Assembly: GCF_054482525.1 (NCBI RefSeq)
Contig: NZ_CM137006.1
Length of the DNA stretch: 64,000 nt
Reading direction: 5' to 3' (one strand)
The translations under genes and the position numbers were made by a program. A model generated the notes under the pieces. That model saw only the letters and a program-made list of their open reading frames with translations. It did not search any database and was not told the DNA's origin. Below are positions 15,737-41,785 of this stretch, in pieces; position 1 is the stretch's first letter; every line of letters starts with the position of its first letter.

Positions 15737-16063
15737 ATGACTAAAAATACTCGTTTTTCCCCCGAAGTCCGTCAGAGGGCGATTCGTATGGTTCTGGAAA
15801 GTCAGGGCGAATATGACTCACAGTGGGCGGCAATTTGTTCCATTGCCCCAAAGATTGGCTGTACACCGGAGACTCTGCGTGTCTGGGTACGCCAGCATGA
15901 GCGGGATACCGGAGGCGGTGATGGCGGGCTCACCACCGCTGAACGTCAGCGTCTGAAAGAGCTGGAACGTGAAAATCGTGAACTGCGCCGCAGTAACGAT
16001 ATCCTTCGCCAGGCTTCCGCTTATTTTGCGAAGGCGGAGTTCGACCGCCTCTGGAAAAAATGA
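15737..16063 (+). CDS. IS629 transposase OrfA
   Basis: 108-aa [25 protein letters not shown]... with HTH and leucine-zipper-like C-terminus; IS3-family OrfA. Confidence 0.85.
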
Positions 16064-16950
16064 TGCCACTGCTGGATAAGCTGCGTGAGCAGTACGGGGT
16101 CGGACCGCTATGCAGCGAACTGCATATTGCCCCGTCAACGTATTACCACTGTCAGCAACAGCGACATCATCCGGATAAACGCAGTGCCCGTGCGCAGCGC
16201 GATGACTGGCTGAAGAAAGAGATACAGCGCGTATACGATGAAAATCATCAGGTGTACGGTGTGCGTAAAGTCTGGCGTCAGTTGTTACGGGAAGGTATCA
16301 GAGTGGCCAGATGCACTGTGGCACGTCTCATGGCGGTTATGGGACTTGCCGGTGTTCTCCGGGGTAAAAAGGTCCGTACGACCATCAGCCGGAAAGCCGT
16401 TGCCGCAGGCGACCGCGTAAACCGTCAGTTCGTGGCAGAACGACCTGACCAGCTGTGGGTGGCTGATTTTACTTACGTCAGCACATGGCGGGGCTTCGTC
16501 TATGTGGCGTTCATCATTGATGTGTTTGCCGGATACATCGTGGGGTGGCGGGTCTCATCGTCTATGGAAACGACATTCGTGCTGGATGCTCTGGAGCAGG
16601 CGTTATGGGCCCGTCAACCGTCCGGCACAGTCCATCACAGTGATAAAGGTTCTCAGTATGTATCGCTGGCCTACACACAGCGGCTTAAGGAAGCCGGATT
16701 ACTGGCATCAACAGGAAGTACTGGTGACTCGTATGACAACGCGATGGCGGAGAGCATCAATGGCCTTTACAAAGCGGAGGTAATACACCGTAAGAGCTGG
16801 AAAAACCGGACAGAAGTGGAGCTGGCCACACTCACGTGGGTGGACTGGTATAACAATCGACGATTGCTGGAAAGGCTGGGCCATATCCCACCGGCAGAAG
16901 CAGAAAAAGCTTATTATGCTTCCATCGGAAACGATGATCTGGCAGCCTGA
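16060..16950 (+). CDS. IS629 transposase OrfB (DDE integrase domain)
   Basis: 296-aa ORF overlapping orfA; DDE transposase core; normally expressed as an OrfAB fusion by frameshifting. Confidence 0.85.
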
Positions 16951-23990: not shown

Positions 23991-24179
23991 CCAGATACCA
24001 ATAGAATACAACATTAATCTATCGTCAGAAGGCATCACCGGGGCCTTCTGACATAATCTGTTAATACGTGTACTATTACCCTGTTCAGAAAACATTGATT
24101 CAAAAATGAAAACCAGTTAACAGAAAAGCAAAATGATATAATGTTAAAATTTTATATAGTGCAATAAAAGGAGAATGTT

Positions 24180-25997
24180 ATGTATAATTTTATCACTATA
24201 ATGTATGATGTCTTTTCATGTTTTGGTGTTCTGGCTAAAAACCAGAATAGCCGTGACATCCGAAATATTAAAAATTTTTCCTCACATCAACATTCACTGG
24301 GCGACATGTTTGATGAATTAATAAACATTATTGATAAAGAACAAGTATTGAGTAAAGAACAACGAAAAGTTATATTTAGGAGATATGAAGATCTCTATGT
24401 TAAGCTAATGCACTATTCTGTTTTTACAGACAAAACACATCAAATAATAAAACAAAAATATTTTAATGACATTGTACCAATGATTCTCGCACTCGACATC
24501 AGGAACACATATCGCCCGGATAATGAGATGGCATTTTACTATCATATTCATTCTTTTCTCACTCAGATACCGGATAATGAGGATGATATATATCATGCTG
24601 CAAGGACATATCTGCGAAATTACGTTAAGTTATGTTTATCCGGATACACGCCAGCGAATGCGCATTTCAAAGATATCTTTGATGGCGTATATGAATTCAT
24701 TCGTAATATTCGCAAAAACAGTACACCAGGAAAAACAAAACTTATCGCAACTATCAACACATGCAAAGAAACCTGTAAACATCTGCTTTATTTAAGTAAT
24801 GAAGACAAGGAAAAAATAATTTCTGACTTAGATAAAGTTCAGGTTGCATGTTATTATCTCACTATATTACTGGCTTTCGAAAGACGAACTTCATTAACAA
24901 GCACCCTGGCAACTTTATATAAAATGCTGATAAGCGAAAGAGAAGTTTCAGAATATGAATGCCAGTTATTATATTTAACCAACCCAATAGATGTAATGAA
25001 TATACTGAACAAATACATATATTACTTTCCTAATGAGAACTCACCATTTTATACACTGAAAATTGACAGTGCATTATCGTGGGATGCCATTGACGCAATA
25101 CGAGACTATAGTATTTCTGATATTTATCTTTATCCTGAACAAAAAACAATAAATTGTGTCGTTGAGATTGAAAACATTGTCTTTGGCGGTTACATTTATA
25201 CATTGAACAACGGCGTCACATTACAAAACATAGAAAACTCTTTAAAAGATTCTTCATGCCATTATGTCTTAAATGGCTATACAGAATTTGTTAACTGTTT
25301 GAGACAACTTACTTCAGGAAAGACTGAAAGTGTTCATCGCACCATCAATAAACTGAACTATGAGAAATTACCTTTTGGATTTATCATTGCCGCGTTTGCT
25401 ATACTAAAGATAGCATTTAAAATAAAATTCAGTAAAAATCATGTAAATATCCGAGCATTATTAAATGACATCAATTATTTTATGACTTATCAGGGCGAGT
25501 CCATTAACCTTATTTCACTGGATCACGAATACCCAGAGTCCTGTCTTCAAAATGACACAAACACATATTTATTAGGAAGAGTAATATTTCTGTATAACTC
25601 AATGATTTATAAGTTCATAAACTGTCAGGAACATGAAACCAATAACATTCACTCAGCTATGATAAATAACCTATTACAGGAAGTTGATATAGCCCTTGGT
25701 AAAATAAATGACATTATAGACAGCAGAAACATATCAACCCCCCATGAACTGGCAAATATTCTTACCCGCGAAAAAATACTTACAACACGGGAAAAAAAAG
25801 GAAACCTGATAAGCCTGTTTGATGGATTCACTTTATTCCATTGTGTTGGAATGATAACCTTTCTTATCCATTATCTCAGAACACCTGAAGAAAAAGTTGA
25901 AAATATATTTATGTTATATGGTGCAGATAAAAACAATAAACTACGCAGAAGACTGATTTATGACGCACTAGGAATAATTCAGTCTCAGCAGGAGTGA
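24180..25997 (+). CDS. hypothetical protein (605 aa), strongly AT-rich orphan gene
   Basis: ATG at 24180 preceded by AAAGGAG (24167-24173); no motif recognised; composition far more AT-rich than the backbone. Confidence 0.6.
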   Translation: MYNFITIMYDVFSCFGVLAKNQNSRDIRNIKNFSSHQHSLGDMFDELINIIDKEQVLSKEQRKVIFRRYEDLYVKLMHYSVFTDKTHQIIKQKYFNDIVPMILALDIRNTYRPDNEMAFYYHIHSFLTQIPDNEDDIYHAARTYLRNYVKLCLSGYTPANAHFKDIFDGVYEFIRNIRKNSTPGKTKLIATINTCKETCKHLLYLSNEDKEKIISDLDKVQVACYYLTILLAFERRTSLTSTLATLYKMLISEREVSEYECQLLYLTNPIDVMNILNKYIYYFPNENSPFYTLKIDSALSWDAIDAIRDYSISDIYLYPEQKTINCVVEIENIVFGGYIYTLNNGVTLQNIENSLKDSSCHYVLNGYTEFVNCLRQLTSGKTESVHRTINKLNYEKLPFGFIIAAFAILKIAFKIKFSKNHVNIRALLNDINYFMTYQGESINLISLDHEYPESCLQNDTNTYLLGRVIFLYNSMIYKFINCQEHETNNIHSAMINNLLQEVDIALGKINDIIDSRNISTPHELANILTREKILTTREKKGNLISLFDGFTLFHCVGMITFLIHYLRTPEEKVENIFMLYGADKNNKLRRRLIYDALGIIQSQQE

Positions 25998-26183
25998 AGA
26001 GTTAAACAGGCAAATTATTTTTTATAAAAAGGGGATTGTTAAGTAATCCCCTGTTAATCAAAATACGCTTTCCTGACGATCTGATAATTATCAGCTCAAT
26101 ACATTTGACATAAAAGCGGTTTCTTAATTACTACTGCTACGATCACATATCAAATCATGATCGTACAATATACATTTTCACTA

Positions 26184-27546: not shown

Positions 27547-27606
27547 CCCCCTCACCGCCATATTCAAAGAAGAGCTCGTACGAAAGTGCGAGCTTTTTTT
27601 TCGCAT
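27547..27606 (+). repeat. direct repeat copy 1 containing a tRNA 3'-end-like motif (TCCCCCTCACCGCCA) and a terminator-like hairpin plus T-run
   Basis: Near-identical to 27724-27785 (one substitution and one indel); the ...CTCACCGCCA end resembles the acceptor/CCA end of tRNA-Ser. Confidence 0.5.
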
Positions 27607-27723
27607 ATTGCACTCCAGGGGGGATGAGAAGCCCCGACCGGGGTTCGACAACTGGCGCAGCCAGTTGGACAGACCACGAACGCAGTGAGTGGGCTGCCCG
27701 CAGGGCGAGCGAAGCGAGTCAAT

Positions 27724-27785
27724 CCCCCCCCTCACCGCCATATTCAAAGAAGAGCTCGTACGAAAGTACGAGTTTTTTTTCGCAT
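27724..27785 (+). repeat. direct repeat copy 2 containing a tRNA 3'-end-like motif (AATCCCCCCCCTCACCGCCA) and a terminator-like hairpin plus T-run
   Basis: See copy 1; this copy has a longer match to a tRNA-Ser T-arm/acceptor 3' strand, but no complementary 5' acceptor strand (GGTGAGG) exists upstream, so it is not an intact tRNA. Confidence 0.5.
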
Positions 27786-28083
27786 TTTATCTGCCTGTAC
27801 GGCAGTGAACGGTATAAAAATCGAGTTTTTCTTTCGGTTGGCTTTCTAAGCTGCCTGTACGGCAGTGAACTCAAATACTACACGTCTAGCCCGTTGTTAA
27901 TAAAGCAAAACCATCTCATTTTCCTGCTACCACCCTTTTTTATCCTTACCTTCCCGCAGCACTAATTATCAACAACTTACAATCATCATCAAAAAAAGGG
28001 TCTGAACCTCCTCCACCCCATAAATAAAAAGTCCGTAACCTCTTTCGAGATTACGGACTTCACCAACCTACCTAACAATTAGA

Positions 28084-30813: not shown

Positions 30814-31497
30814 TTATATCATTTAGTTAATTAGTCTTTATTTTTCATTATGTTGCAAATAACAAGCCCGTCAAAAACAGTGATATTAACTACACCATTA
30901 ACTACACCGCTTCACGAACAATATCGAACAACCGCGAACAAAGATCAACACGCTTTAATCATTATCATTTTCCGGCTATCCGTCATGAAGCTGGTGGATG
31001 ATCTGCGTGGTGATTTCCACCATTCAGAGCAGGGGCGGTCATCATGACCATGCCATAACAAAAACCCCATATTCGTGGTTTTTCTGTGTCGGGGCTATTC
31101 TGCTGTTGCCGTGCTGGTGGATATTCTCCGGTATGCGGCTCCCCATATCGGCATCAGGCCCACCAGCGTGAAGCGTTTTTCATTTTTCGCGGGTATAAAA
31201 AATCGATGGGGCTGGCAGTCCTGAAGACGTCAGGGTACGGAGATTTGACCCGCCCCTCCCTGTGCATGAGCACAATAAGTAACCGAAGGCGGAATTCCGC
31301 CCTCGGTACTTACATATGAGAAACGATATTTCTTCCACCGATACCCTTTATTTGGGTATTGCGAGTAAGCCCCAAAATCTGGGTGTTACTCTTACTACCC
31401 AAACTACGGGTAGTTTCCGTAGTTTCATGGTCGAGTTGCAAATCTGCAACTCACCCACCAGCCAACGCAATTTTGCGTTATCGGGAATATCAGCAAG

Positions 31498-36018: not shown

Positions 36019-37851
36019 TTAATTTTTGCTATCGTCATTAGTGACCGATACACATGATGGCATCCAGTCTTCTGATTCCTCCGTCAGTGTCACGTTTGAA
36101 CGCAAACCGTGCTTCGTTTTCCGTTTCATATACTCCCTGCCATATTCCGCCATTGCCCCCGGCATATCTTTACCGAAGCGCGTCAGTGTTACAGGTTTAC
36201 CAAACCCATGTGCCCTCATATAAGCCAGATAGGCATGATAGAGATACCTGCGTGGGCTGAATGGCACAATTTCAGCATTACCCACTAACAGGCCATCACA
36301 CATTACCGACGCCATGAGATAGCCGCAGAAGTCCACCAGCGAATCACCTTCACGCTTTATCGCGAGTGCTTCTTCTGATTTCTGCTGCTCATATAAAAGG
36401 CGTCTGGCTTCGTCCTGGTCAGCAAACCGTGTAAGCAGATGGCGAATCACTACCGCCAGCTCACCTTCTATTTTTTCCGCCAGCATTGGATCACGTTCGT
36501 TCTCCGGTACAACTTCCGAAAAATTGAATATCACCCGACGACGTGAGATCCCCCCGCTGCGGTCACTGAATGACATGGCGTTATTGTTAACCGCCAGCAC
36601 TACTGCCGGAATACGCGTTGAGTAGGGGGCTTTGTGTTTCGGGTCAATTGCCACCTTGTCACCGCCTGTAATAGCCTTAATCCCTGCCCCATCACCAGCG
36701 TAGCGGGTCATATCCGGCATGATAATCAGCGAAAAGCCAACCACTAACGCGCGTTCCCTTGCATCTTCCAGCGCCTTCATGCTTGCCGATACTGTGTTGG
36801 CCTTACCCGCCAGCATGGTGCAAATCTCCGCCATCACGCTTTTACCACTTCCCCCTGGACCTGTTACCTCAATGAATAACTGCCAGTCGTACCGGTTCGC
36901 CAGCACCATGAATAATGCAGCCAGTACGCGATCCGCCTTGCGGTCATTCTCAGCCACCGAACGGCGTAACCACTTCCAGAAATTCGGCGCATGTGTTGCC
37001 AGCGTTTCCCCCTCTGCTGGTGGGCTGAAAGGTAATTCACTGGCAATTAACAACCAGTCGTTTTTGTTATGCTCCCGAAAATTACCTGTTCTGGTATCAA
37101 ATACCCCGTTACTGAATCCAATCAGGTTACGGGCTGTATTCCCCATTACAGGCAAACTTAACTTCATGGTATCGACCGCCGATTTAATGGCGTTCTGCGA
37201 ATAGCTGATCTCCGCATCAATGAAAATCTGTGCCATAGCTCGCTGTAATTCTTTATCCTGTACTGGCTCCCATACAACGCCGTTGTAATGGTGAACAGTG
37301 TCAGAGTCAGCATGAATCGCCAGTTCACCGCCATAATGTGCCAGGAGAACTTCGCCGCGTTGACTTGCTCCCATCTGGTTAAGCGCCAGTGATGAAGCGT
37401 TATCGTCTTTTACCCGCTCTTTTTTCTTTACAGGCAGTTCAACTACCTTTTTCTTTTCCGCCAGCTCTGCCCGTTCACGTTCCAGATATTCGCGCCAGTT
37501 CTCCCGTTTCTGGCTGTGCATTCCTTCAGGGTAATAATCAGCATCCCTGACACCTGCCGCTGCCAGTTTCTGCCCGATGGTATTAACAAGCCCCGGACGC
37601 AATAACCCCGCCTGATAGAGACGCACGCGATAGCGTCCGTCCGGTACGATTTGCAGGTTGTCCAGTTCGGCAAGTTGTTGCTCTCCAAGCCAGACAGGTG
37701 GCACGTTATCGCCAGCCAGTCGCCCGTCCTGTTCCTGCCACTGATTCGCATGTGCCCACGCATCACTACCCGCAAAAATGATGACTTCCGTCATTTTGTC
37801 ACGCGGCTGGTGTTTTAAATTTGGCGCTTTTTTCATTTCTGCTCTCTCCAC
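36019..37851 (-). CDS. primase / replication initiator (Pri-Rep-like, P-loop NTPase)
   Basis: 610-aa ORF; P-loop GPGGSGKS; overall resemblance to P4 alpha / PICI Pri-Rep proteins (primase C-terminal plus D5-like NTPase). Confidence 0.7.
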   Translation of the reverse strand: MERAEMKKAPNLKHQPRDKMTEVIIFAGSDAWAHANQWQEQDGRLAGDNVPPVWLGEQQLAELDNLQIVPDGRYRVRLYQAGLLRPGLVNTIGQKLAAAGVRDADYYPEGMHSQKRENWREYLERERAELAEKKKVVELPVKKKERVKDDNASSLALNQMGASQRGEVLLAHYGGELAIHADSDTVHHYNGVVWEPVQDKELQRAMAQIFIDAEISYSQNAIKSAVDTMKLSLPVMGNTARNLIGFSNGVFDTRTGNFREHNKNDWLLIASELPFSPPAEGETLATHAPNFWKWLRRSVAENDRKADRVLAALFMVLANRYDWQLFIEVTGPGGSGKSVMAEICTMLAGKANTVSASMKALEDARERALVVGFSLIIMPDMTRYAGDGAGIKAITGGDKVAIDPKHKAPYSTRIPAVVLAVNNNAMSFSDRSGGISRRRVIFNFSEVVPENERDPMLAEKIEGELAVVIRHLLTRFADQDEARRLLYEQQKSEEALAIKREGDSLVDFCGYLMASVMCDGLLVGNAEIVPFSPRRYLYHAYLAYMRAHGFGKPVTLTRFGKDMPGAMAEYGREYMKRKTKHGLRSNVTLTEESEDWMPSCVSVTNDDSKN

Positions 37852-38132
37852 GCGGCAATCATGTTTTTCAGTTCCTGTAGTTTTTTATCAACATCCATAC
37901 ATGACACATGGTTATTTCTGGAAAGCGGGATTTCCCGCCTGAATCTGCTAATAAAGATCTCCACGTTCAGCGAACTATGAAATGAATAGCCATCACGAAT
38001 AAAATACACACGGTCAAACATCAGTTCTTTTACCGTTACTCTGTTACCGTTCTTATCCAGATAAATAGCGCCGGGGATAATTTTGGGGTGTGCATAACCG
38101 CTGGCAGTCAAGCCAGATAAATATGTTCTCAT
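37833..38132 (-). CDS. hypothetical protein (99 aa)
   Basis: ORF overlapping the primase start; unknown function. Confidence 0.4.
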   Translation of the reverse strand: MRTYLSGLTASGYAHPKIIPGAIYLDKNGNRVTVKELMFDRVYFIRDGYSFHSSLNVEIFISRFRREIPLSRNNHVSCMDVDKKLQELKNMIAAWREQK

Positions 38133-38138
38133 GATTAT

Positions 38139-38459
38139 TTATCCCCGATTTGAATCAGTATTCGCTTTCTTTATGGCATTTAATGCATCTGTGGCATTTT
38201 CAATGGTGCACCGTAACGAAATATCAAACTGCCCAAGCATTGCCAGTAACAAACCGATATTACCCATATCAATGCGCATAGCCTTTTCGTCATAGTCCTC
38301 ATTTTCTGACGCATGCCACATCAGGCTACCAATTGACGCAATACCCATTGATATATTGTCAGTAGCCCCATCCGCAGCGGAATAAACCTTTTTAGCAATA
38401 TCATGCTCACAGTTAAAATGCGGATTAATCAGGTACTGGTAATTTGACATATCAGGCAT
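38139..38459 (-). CDS. hypothetical protein (about 106 aa, [10 protein letters not shown]...)
   Basis: C-terminal part of ORF 38139..38894 from an internal ATG; the upstream part of that ORF is Pro/Arg-rich and looks like an off-frame artefact. Confidence 0.4.
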
Positions 38460-38991
38460 GGCACACCCCCTGGCGAATACGGGCGGCGAATACAGCAACA
38501 CAACCGGACGGGCAGCGGTTACGCGCTTCACGTTCCGTCCAGGCGGTGACGTGGATGATTTGATGGTCTGACGCGCCAAAGATGATAAAGCGCCAGAGAA
38601 AGGCGGTTTGAGAATGTACAAGGGTAGGGATAGTAGCCATGTTGGCAGCCTCCTTTGACAGTGAAGAATTTCCACCGCAGGAAACGCCAATTTCGCTGGC
38701 GGTGGACTGAACGGGGTTGGCGTAACCGGCGTCAAAGGGAACCGGCGCTTCCGAAGAAGCCCCCGCCCAGCCCACCATAACTTTGATGTGAGCGAATGCG
38801 GACGATAAAAAAGACGCTGGCGCGTCATATATCGCCTTTGACATTTCCAGGACGCCAATCCCGGCACCAGATTTTGCTGGTGCGGATAAATCATAGCCCT
38901 GGCTTGCAGTGGCGATCAACTGGTTTTTTACACCCGCTTTATTCAGGTTGTGCGAGTCCCGCCCTTGCGGGTGTGTGGTATGATTTCTCAT
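38452..38991 (-). CDS. hypothetical protein(s); contains an internal SD-preceded start (MATIPTLV... at 38640) that may define a separate 62-aa gene
   Basis: 3' part of ORF 38452..39741; AAGGAGG precedes the ATG at 38640; the N-terminal 250 codons of the 429-aa ORF overlap the operator region and plus-strand genes and are treated as spurious. Confidence 0.3.
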
Positions 38992-39088
38992 AGCGACCTC
39001 GATACTATCGTTATCGTTGGTGGTTAGAAGCCCCGTTACTGCTCCAACAGTGCGGGGTTTCGTCGTTTCTGCACCTTGCATCAACAAG

Positions 39089-39140
39089 GTGTTGAACACC
39101 AATGTAAACTCAGGTGTTGAACACGTCAAGTGTTGAACAC
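39089..39140. promoter_or_regulatory. three perfect 11-bp palindromic repeats GTGTTGAACAC (putative operator sites) in a divergent promoter region
   Basis: Copies at 39089-39099, 39114-39124, 39130-39140, between the minus-strand gene block and the plus-strand small gene at 39191. Confidence 0.55.
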
Positions 39141-39190
39141 TTGTTTTTTTTCCTGCATACTGCATTTGTTTTTTGTGAGGGGTACACAAC

Positions 39191-39370
39191 ATGGCGACAA
39201 AAGCAGTAAACGCAAAATCACAAACAGTTGCGGCAAGGGTTCCGCATGAAGTTATGAACAATGTTGAGGCGGTAAAAATGCCTGGTGAAAGTACAGGGCA
39301 ATTTGTAACAGCAGCATTAAAGCGAGAAGTTGAATACCGCCAGCGACGCAAGGCTAAAGAGCAAGAATAA
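39191..39370 (+). CDS. small basic protein (59 aa), putative DNA-binding regulator
   Basis: My translation [59 protein letters not shown]; GAGGGG before the ATG; below the ORF-track size cutoff. Confidence 0.45.
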
Positions 39371-39427
39371 TCACTATCAGCGCTGTGGTGTGAGGTACTC
39401 CGGCGCATTGCTTTACAGGTCGGCACT

Positions 39428-39637
39428 ATGAGCAAAAAATACCTATCCACTGAAGAGATTTTCGCAGAACAACGAAGATTGCTTTTACAGAGCATTGTTG
39501 CACGCCAGAAAGAAAAGGCACACGCTAAACAAATGCCACCAAATACAGAACCAGCGCCTACAAAATTTGCGCTTGATGAGTTTCTCAATAAACAGCCCCG
39601 GGTAATGAAAGCTAACAGGAACCGCCCACCAGGCTGA
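39428..39637 (+). CDS. hypothetical small protein (69 aa)
   Basis: ORF-track entry; weak ribosome-binding site; uncertain. Confidence 0.3.
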
Positions 39638-39751
39638 TCACATTGCCCACCAGCCAGCAAATCGCTATGATGGCTGGGCTTATGTTTAGTGTATTCCCAC
39701 TGGCGACCTCTGATCCGGGTCGCCTTTGTTTTATGTGTCATATGCCCCCCT

Positions 39752-39961
39752 TTACGCTGCCTTGCCTGAATTAATGCGATCCCGGCTTTTAACCCATTCC
39801 ATAACCTCGGACAGCAGCCAACCTACAGAACGACCGCCCAGATTACGGCGTGACGGGAAATTCCCTTTTTTCTCCAGTTCATAGCGTGTAGTGCGACACA
39901 CTCCAGTTAACTTACGACATTCATCCTCACGGATTACGCGATCTTCATTTATTTCACGCAT
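39752..39961 (-). CDS. alpA: AlpA-family transcriptional regulator / excisionase-like
   Basis: 69-aa [60 protein letters not shown]; AlpA-type HTH. Confidence 0.65.
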
Positions 39962-41619: not shown

Positions 41620-41785
41620 GTTTCGCGTTTCCGGTCATCAAAATTAACTACACCATTGACTACACCGTGCATCGTACAAGGGCAAACCGTGACGAACAAG
41701 AGCGAACAAGGAAAACAAAATTTTCCTTTATAATCATAGCGATGAATGCACACAAAACACTACCACGAACACCCGCGAACACTAG

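Follow-up and report, generated by a model that had tools for sequence, protein, structure and literature searches.

What do the small genes do that sit between the primase gene and the regulatory region of a phage satellite, and how are they controlled? The question arises at positions 37833-38991 of a 64,000-nucleotide stretch of Escherichia coli chromosome (contig NZ_CM137006.1, called the window from here on), which carries a ~10.8-kb satellite of the phage-inducible chromosomal island (PICI) type between clpS and cspD. The original prediction saw here a cluster of small minus-strand genes that could be accessory cargo. The comparisons reported below favour another reading: the locus is probably the immunity-controlled front of the satellite's early (replication) operon, built like the left operon of satellite P4. 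Systems in which P4/P1-type antisense-RNA immunity precedes a coupled early operon are already known, and this one has an ordinary layout.

Two RNAs of the immunity type

Two structured RNAs encoded on the minus strand lie upstream of the operon's first small gene (Table 1). One matches the isrK/P4 seqA-type leader family and the other the C4/P4-CI-type antisense family, both over the full length of their covariance models and above the gathering scores; the isrK match contains a terminator-like hairpin (38826-38813) followed by a T-run. The isrK region also scored 43.8 bits against the c4-a1b1 model, slightly below the cut-off of 46.7, and is likewise sub-threshold in P4. The C4 RNA fits a family model in which an outer stem encloses two hairpins; it is predicted to fold with a minimum free energy of -47.5 kcal/mol and exposes two elements. 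The first is its 12-nt hairpin loop, UUCCCUUUGACG (38741-38730), with the core CCUUUGAC (also written CCTTTGAC); the second is ACGCCAA, single-stranded, at 38723-38717, 3' of the loop. Each has one exact complement upstream, in isrK, and one downstream of C4. The downstream complement of the loop is fused to a Shine-Dalgarno sequence, AAGGAGG (38655-38649), and thus overlaps the ribosome-binding site of an icd/kil-type open reading frame (ORF). In an alignment, the promoter-like TTGATC...TATGAT just before isrK lines up with TTGCCT ... TATAGT of P4, which we take to be the position of PLE.

These findings redraw the upper part of the cluster. The AAGGAGG-supported start that the original prediction had placed at 38640 is there, 8 nt behind the motif. 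Small genes had been predicted throughout 37833-38991; three minus-strand ORFs among them are real, but the upper third (38640-38991) contains the two Rfam RNAs and no independent small gene, and the possible fourth ORF (ATG 38991 to 38452, 179 aa) overlies isrK and C4. The NCBI Prokaryotic Genome Annotation Pipeline (PGAP) calls an "ash family protein" pseudogene at 38671-39192 and lists no RNA there. The Pfam Phage_ASH match of the 179-aa frame (nt ~38892-38611) coincides with isrK and C4, and the "ash" pseudogene stretch is better read as the satellite's RNA immunity determinant.

Two inverted repeats connect the RNAs with the icd coding region: one of 26 nt, 77% complementary, pairs 38516-38541 with the 3' half of C4 (38703-38728), and a perfect one of 10 nt pairs 38569-38578 with an arm of the isrK terminator (38818-38827). 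They could form alternative structures like those of Gifsy-1 isrK-orf45.

Co-variation of the RNA with its targets

How regular is this cassette? A pattern that specifies nothing but the C4 stems, run against IMG/VR, turned up 109 unique cassettes carrying 54 distinct loops. In 80% of the cognate upstream flanks and 80% of the cognate downstream flanks the loop has a complementary stretch of 8 nt or more, as against <1% of non-cognate ones. For the second element, complements of at least 7 nt were found in 96% (upstream) and 98% (downstream) of cognate flanks, compared with 4% and 1% of non-cognate flanks. The downstream loop target lies ~40-45 nt after C4 (at about +43 nt in ~80% of the 109 cassettes) and runs into GGAG...ATG. 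This test of cognate against non-cognate complementarity was used in place of an RNAduplex scan of the C4 loop along the operon, which was dropped because it was unspecific: GC-rich decoys scored equal to the true sites.

A six-way alignment of the window, SfV, the Stx-related phage PPyecE, the E. coli satellites L004 and L005, and P4 gives the same picture at higher resolution. Three variable segments change together, the remainder is 75-87% identical, and hairpin 1 of C4 shows compensatory pair changes. The window cassette is therefore a regular, intact member of the family with a specificity of its own; its target, GUCAAAGG, differs from those of P4, SfV and the other cassettes compared. 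Which related elements can cross-repress one another should be decided by the variable loop together with its two targets.

Likeness to P4, P1 and Gifsy-1

P4, read directly, has the same two Rfam matches in the same order, and the likeness extends along the operon. In both elements AlpA/vis is followed by seqA, CI and seqC, then by a kil-type ORF, a coupled small gene and, last, the primase gene; in both, an internal promoter site adjoins the isrK/seqA RNA. The downstream target of P4 is fused to the kil Shine-Dalgarno sequence (ttCACAGGAGGctgccatcATG; ttCACAGGAGG...ATG), as that of the window is to the one of icd. The position of P4 epsilon, which starts 8 nt before the kil stop, is held in the window by orf106: it is the first gene past the kil-type ORF, and its start overlaps the icd stop by 8 nt (ATGCCTGA). 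P4 Eta (199 codons) starts at the stop of the vis/AlpA-like gene and reads through seqA, CI and kil; the corresponding frame of the window has 429 codons.

There are also multiple differences. First, the long ORF of the window, unlike Eta, runs antisense through two inserted plus-strand genes. Second, the window adds an operator-flanked promoter with a YlcI-like gene. Third, its post-icd genes are unrelated to epsilon, orf151 and orf106 of P4. Fourth, the element itself is PICI-like, with a ClpP-capsid fusion and a DUF1441 gene, whereas psu, sid and delta, which together with an alpha-type primase would characterise a P4-like satellite, are not among the island ORFs or in the PGAP annotation; the primase has 605 aa as against 777 aa for P4 alpha. 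The specificity loop differs as well (CCUUUGAC in the window, CCUGUGAA in P4).

The immI region of P1/P7 (c4, icd, ant) belongs to the same kind: its c4 is in the Rfam family of the window C4. Recognition by P1 c4 is bipartite (a'/b' versus a1/b1 and a2/b2), the downstream target covers the ribosome-binding site of icd, and the next gene is coupled to icd. In P1/P7 an Ant-type antirepressor lies downstream; in the window it is orf106, the DUF4222 gene and the primase gene that follow.

A third relative is isrK-orf45-anrP of Gifsy-1 in Salmonella, where the RNA of the isrK family has its own terminator, as in the window. A processed stable RNA lies downstream there, and translation of the gene that follows a short upstream ORF is coupled to that ORF (PMC4825925). 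The authors describe IsrK as a structural homologue of P4 seqA and found that it activates, in trans, translation of an antirepressor-like protein (Hershko-Shalev et al., 2016, PMC4825925); Hfq binding and activity in trans have been shown only for the Salmonella IsrK (PMC4825925). Unlike the satellite in the window, Gifsy-1 is a prophage, and no primase operon follows.

A proposed mechanism by analogy with P4

In P4, the transcript from the internal promoter is ended early through CI, and CI is processed from that same transcript (PMC10111431). Kil is translated on occasional read-through, while Eta is translated only from the upstream late promoter, coupled to the alpA homologue, and prevents termination (PMC10111431). 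Rfam C4 and isrK also match several Gram-negative PICIs (Mageeney et al., 2023, PMC10111431).

We infer that the P4 mechanism carries over to the window. In the integrated state, C4 would be cut out of the leader transcript and would pair with its targets, occluding the icd ribosome-binding site; the loss of icd translation, together with polarity, would silence orf106, the RgdR-like gene and the primase gene. Escape would come from transcripts that begin farther upstream, either at the operator-flanked promoter (39129-39101), which is probably repressed by the divergent YlcI-like protein, or at the AlpA promoter. Ribosomes on these transcripts, having started at ATG 38991 or 39741, would read through isrK, C4 and the targets, as in the case of P4 Eta.

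Nested starts and a long frame

Three in-frame starts share the stop at 38452: ATG 38640 (62 aa), ATG 38991 (179 aa) and ATG 39741 (429 aa), with the C4 target, GAGG and AGGGGGG, respectively, as their Shine-Dalgarno sequences. The longest frame is antisense to the ylcI-like gene and to a 69-aa ORF, in the register in which both strands share third codon positions, so that substitution patterns cannot separate the two readings. Its evidence is of other kinds. Seven of eight related E. coli loci (all but L005, where it is broken) keep this frame open between AlpA and the icd stop, as does a distant metagenomic relative whose orf106 is 43% identical; stop-to-stop lengths are 328-498 codons. Upstream of ATG 38991, each of eight loci has 0 stops in this frame as against 11-23 in each other frame, and in six of them the first in-frame ATG comes 10 nt after the AlpA stop. 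When the non-genic parts were shuffled, the frame stayed open in ~0.2% to <0.01% of trials (P about 2e-3 to below 1e-4). Judged by sequence, the 429-codon ORF is no chance product of GC content.

Of the 109 cassettes, 96 have at least one frame that stays open across isrK, C4 and the Shine-Dalgarno sequence (median 200 codons), compared with 145 of 365 control windows; the resulting 88% is only moderate evidence, because 40% of neighbouring antisense windows are open too. The long ORF can be read as an analogue of P4 Eta that was lengthened by a ylcI-like cassette between AlpA and the RNA cassette. The original prediction had treated the long GC-rich ORFs here as off-frame confounders. Of these, the 251-aa ORF at 38894-38139 is an upstream extension of the orf106 frame that is not present in the relatives L003, L006 and L007; the 429-aa ORF is in frame with icd and conserved.

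A candidate protein repressor

The promoter-like site at 39129-39101 lies between the ylcI-like gene and ATG 38991, flanked by operator-like repeats. The window has three copies of GTGTT(C/T)AACAC; relatives with another YlcI-like variant have different repeats at the same positions (three copies of GTGCGATTCA in L007, three of GTGGCTGACA in L009 and two of GTGTGTATCA in L010). Because the repeats co-vary with the protein variant, the YlcI-like protein is a good candidate for the repressor of this promoter, and the co-variation suggests a protein repressor in a PICI-type element.

The three small genes

The three ORFs behind the RNAs are beyond chance, given their family matches and their homologues in conserved synteny. 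They are chained as the original prediction had it, with overlapping starts and stops: the 8-nt icd/orf106 overlap is followed by a 6-nt gap to the DUF4222 ORF, which in turn overlaps the primase start at 37836 (ATGA). Their supposed lack of any assignable function now applies to the middle one, orf106; the first matches NF033153 and the third DUF4222. No homologue with a structural function, which had been named as counter-evidence, was found.

NCBIfam names NF033153 "host cell division inhibitor Icd-like", and P4 Kil scores 76.1 bits against the same model; by this analogy the Icd/Kil-like peptide probably inhibits host division.

orf106 had no match in Pfam, NCBIfam, PADLOC, PDB sequences or Foldseek-PDB, and its AlphaFold2 (AF2) model is a generic helical hairpin (predicted local distance difference test score, pLDDT, 64). 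A word-indexed protein search returned only near-identical E. coli proteins, and an exhaustive HMMER search returned 18 proteins, a handful of them distant. The family is narrow, since a pattern scan of genome contigs gave 106 matches of which 0 were confirmed by tblastn. Its members are ~100-aa proteins with a conserved S-x-I-G-S-L-M motif, and every one with a readable context, distant homologues (25-43% identity) included, is found in a satellite between an Icd-like ORF and a replicase gene. The closer relatives keep the 8-nt overlap with the icd stop; in more distant ones the two are separated by a small ORF or by ~170 nt. Across 100 C4 cassettes, the overlap between the icd stop and the ORF that follows measures 4 nt in 46 cases and 8 nt in 12, and this ORF falls into 24 unrelated protein clusters, with the relatives of P4 epsilon making up one cluster of 8. 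Our best guess, from position, is that orf106 acts early as an effector directed at the helper or the host. A bolder proposal has two parts, namely that the 330-500-codon ORF of this satellite lineage matters for being translated and not for its product, and that orf106 is a sequence-unrelated counterpart of epsilon that acts on the helper phage; taken together we put these forward tentatively, as somewhat unlikely to hold.

Two further sequences touch on this family. Protein P0020 is a public 324-aa gene call that joins the long AlpA-proximal ORF, the Icd-like part and orf106, a fusion that probably stems from a frameshift or from faulty assembly at the overlap ATGCCTGA. In locus L095 (1-6706), overlapping ORFs follow one another without a break from AlpA to the gene for an 816-aa P4-type (alpha-like) primase; among them, a short DUF4222 ORF precedes the C4 cassette and a member of the orf106 family follows it.

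The third gene product is 31% identical over its full length to RgdR of O157:H7 Sakai (ECs_1581), both being 99 aa. RgdR is a prophage protein that activates LEE1 in the enterocyte effacement locus (LEE), represses motility and binds DNA non-specifically in electrophoretic mobility shift assays (EMSA) (Flockhart et al., 2012, PMC3378721), and its RGD tripeptide at residues 20-22 is important for LEE activation (PMC3378721). The window protein has P-G-A at residues 20-22, where ECs_1581 has RGD; it is therefore a family member and not a predicted LEE activator. RgdR of CP-933C/Sp7 (O157:H7) and the window gene both overlap a primase gene by 4 nt from the upstream side in a small integrated element; no isrK/C4 core was found in the Sakai RgdR element by pattern search. 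The AF2 model (pLDDT 77, core about 87) is a small beta-barrel with a C-terminal helix, and the best explanation makes it a small regulator or adaptor, Tudor/SH3-like, that belongs to the RgdR family. In all nine of the PICI-type loci examined, window included, the DUF4222 gene stands directly ahead of the replicase gene.

Could orf106, the DUF4222 protein or both serve replication, for example by binding the origin, loading the helicase or partnering the primase, and not act as regulators or effectors? Both genes are translationally coupled and directly precede the replicase gene, and the non-specific DNA binding of RgdR in EMSA would fit such a role. What makes this unlikely is that the replicase behind DUF4222 is of four unrelated types (primase, DUF927, RepA-like helicase, DUF5906), and that the shorter DUF4222 ORF of P4-like loci lies upstream of the RNA cassette and well away from the primase gene.

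The cargo hypothesis takes the small ORFs for independent accessory genes (morons) that serve helper interference or host takeover, apart from the element's own regulation. Some of its premises stand. The first ORF is of the Icd/Kil family, the third belongs to a family that affects host virulence and motility genes, and the middle one occupies the slot of P4 epsilon, a slot that is hypervariable, as the 24 clusters attest; in close relatives orf106 is swapped for a 75-aa ORF or for three small ORFs. To this extent the expectation of helper-interference or host-takeover genes at such a position has support. However, the ORFs lack both a promoter and a terminator of their own, overlaps link them to icd and the primase gene, DUF4222 keeps its place whichever replicase type follows, and the recurrence of orf106 homologues between icd-like ORF and replicase in distant satellites fits a core early function better. 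Independent cargo is thus quite unlikely, and the region is instead probably a regulated leader with the first genes of an early/replication operon, in the order known from P4, one third of it being RNA genes.

A third possibility is that the Icd/Kil-like ORF and C4 are mainly a toxin/antisense-antitoxin module (addiction or abortive infection) and not a developmental switch. The family is named for host cell division inhibitors, P4 Kil is described as functioning in cell killing (PMC10111431), and translation of the Icd-like ORF is, by its complementarity, the apparent direct target of a cis-encoded antisense RNA. Against this, replication genes are coupled downstream of icd, so that control of icd controls replication, and relatives keep icd without the C4 RNA, which a toxin in need of its antitoxin would not tolerate. 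We regard the module as very improbable as the main function.

Points against the P4-like reading

Several points weigh against an immunity-controlled, P4-like operon front or against parts of it. First, repression, RNase P processing and Rho polarity are transferred from P4 and P1. Second, pairwise BLASTP of the Icd-like ORF with P4 Kil gave no alignment, so that the two are related via the shared hidden Markov model (HMM) only. Third, orf106 as a homologue of P4 epsilon was tried and rejected (no BLASTP alignment, hhalign probability 0.1%). Fourth, the role of the isrK part is ambiguous, because Gifsy-1 IsrK activates instead of represses. Fifth, when the antisense genes were reshuffled synonymously, the long frame was open by chance in 5-36% per locus, which is not significant alone; support for the long ORF therefore comes from the non-genic parts, from its constant start behind AlpA and from the recurrence in divergent loci, several of which share ancestry and are not fully independent.

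Finally, five relatives at the cspD site (L003, L006-L009) have the YlcI/operator layer without isrK and C4. They retain YlcI, icd, a small ORF (orf106 or another), DUF4222 and a replicase, and in them a 67-aa Icd-like gene begins at the homologue of ATG 38991; compared with these relatives, the window has an in-frame insertion of ~320 nt that comprises the promoter, isrK, C4, the Shine-Dalgarno sequence and the icd N-terminus. The RNA layer is accordingly a modular addition that is dispensable for the family. That the cassette is an inert recombination remnant of a phage immunity region, leaving only the YlcI-like repressor and AlpA to matter, is suggested by this insertion and by the 75-87% identity to SfV and Stx-phage early-region cassettes, but is highly unlikely given full-length covariance-model scores far above the cut-offs, exact complements kept at both target positions for both elements (which would decay quickly without selection) and a retained promoter-like site before isrK.

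The island and its surroundings

The stretch 37700-39800 is 100% identical to that of strain E16002, an avian pathogenic E. coli (APEC) O1:K1:H7. A 15-bp direct repeat, ATTAACTACACCATT, at 30885-30899 and 41643-41657 bounds the island and gives it its length of ~10.8 kb; it is the probable att core. A PICI-type element was recognised by an integrase, AlpA and primase in the same direction, a length of ~10-15 kb, flanking direct repeats and few late genes. The island has int, AlpA and primase genes that are co-directional, direct repeats, and SSB, ClpP-capsid fusion and DUF1441 genes. Past the primase gene, the minus strand encodes in order a small ORF, SSB, a small ORF, the ClpP-protease/major-capsid fusion, the DUF1441 protein and a 95-aa ORF. 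The order of zones (integration, Bro/immunity, replication, late) is that of Gram-negative PICIs (Mageeney et al., 2023, PMC10111431), a paper in which DUF4222, YlcI and cspD are not mentioned. The 69-aa plus-strand ORF had no family match in Pfam, NCBIfam or PHROG.

Table 1. Features of the satellite's early region in window coordinates
Feature	Position	Strand	Match or remark
Integrase	41619-40381	minus	
AlpA-family gene	39752..39961	minus	59.5 bits, Pfam PF05930
429-codon ORF	38452..39741	minus	starts 10 nt after AlpA stop, ends at icd stop
Terminator-like hairpin after 69-aa ORF	39702-39724		
69-aa ORF downstream of ylcI-like gene	39428..39637	plus	hypothetical protein (PGAP)
YlcI/YnfO-family gene	39191..39370	plus, divergent from operon	59.7 bits, NF041551
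Three operator-like repeats (GTGTTGAACAC core)	39085..39140		around promoter-like TTGACG-17-TACATT (39129-39101, minus)
Nested 'Ash-Icd' ORF, 179 aa	38452..38991	minus	PHROG 29966, 277.9 bits, positions 6-186/188
Promoter-like site TTGATC-18-TATGAT	38890..38919	minus	6 nt before isrK 5' end
isrK / P4 seqA-type leader RNA	38807..38883	minus	75.1 bits, Rfam RF01394 (gathering 50), full length
TTGGCGT, complement of ACGCCAA in isrK	38858-38852	minus	exact
GTCAAAGG, complement of loop CCUUUGAC in isrK	38842-38835	minus	exact, 8 nt
C4 / P4-CI-type antisense RNA	38695..38782	minus	82 bits, Rfam RF01695 (gathering 45), model positions 1-87/87
TTGGCGT, complement of ACGCCAA downstream of C4 (a2-like target)	38684..38690	minus	exact
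GTCAAAGG, complement of loop CCUUUGAC downstream of C4 (b2/seqC-like, variable)	38659-38652	minus	exact, 8 nt
GTCAAAGGAGG, i.e. GTCAAAGG fused to Shine-Dalgarno AAGGAGG (38655-38649)	38649..38659	minus	8 nt before ATG 38640
Icd-like / P4 Kil-like ORF, 62 aa	38452..38640	minus	59.2 bits, NF033153 (cut-off 25)
orf106, 106 aa, helical hairpin	38139..38459	minus	PHROG 15327, E=1e-71, end to end
DUF4222 / RgdR-family ORF, 99 aa	37833..38132	minus	61.1 bits, Pfam DUF4222 (gathering 27); ATGA overlap with primase ATG 37836
D5_N/DUF5906/Pox_D5 primase-helicase, 605 aa	36019..37836	minus	last gene of coupled chain

Elsewhere in the window, a minimal type I-F CRISPR array that consists of two GTTCACTGCCGTACAGGCAG repeats and a single spacer lies at 27783-27870, between cas1f and clpA; Rfam put only one of the repeats above its gathering score. 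Beside it (27547-27780) are two near-identical 54-nt repeats, 180 nt apart. An Rfam ALIL pseudoknot (120 bits) at 16018-16134 on the plus strand is presumably the frameshift element of an IS3-family insertion sequence, and such an element is probably present there. The GC fraction falls to ~0.32-0.33 at 24001-26000 and 60001-62000, compared with a background of 0.45-0.55, and both stretches were likely acquired horizontally.

Implications for satellite biology

The presence of C4 and isrK in Gram-negative PICIs is already known (PMC10111431), and the general picture of satellite biology is unchanged. Four things go beyond the literature found, as computational inferences: the antisense-overlapping long ORF, the co-variation of the YlcI-like protein with the operator-like repeats, the placement of the RgdR family and the orf106 family. 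A family known only for a virulence-gene regulator of O157:H7 becomes a constant component ahead of the PICI-type replicase gene, which suggests that its effects on the host are a side activity. orf106 becomes a candidate early effector, and the YlcI-like protein a candidate repressor in elements that are usually called AlpA-controlled. If the proposal for the long ORF is true, its translation would couple AlpA expression to the replication operon, overriding both the protein-based and the RNA-based immunity.

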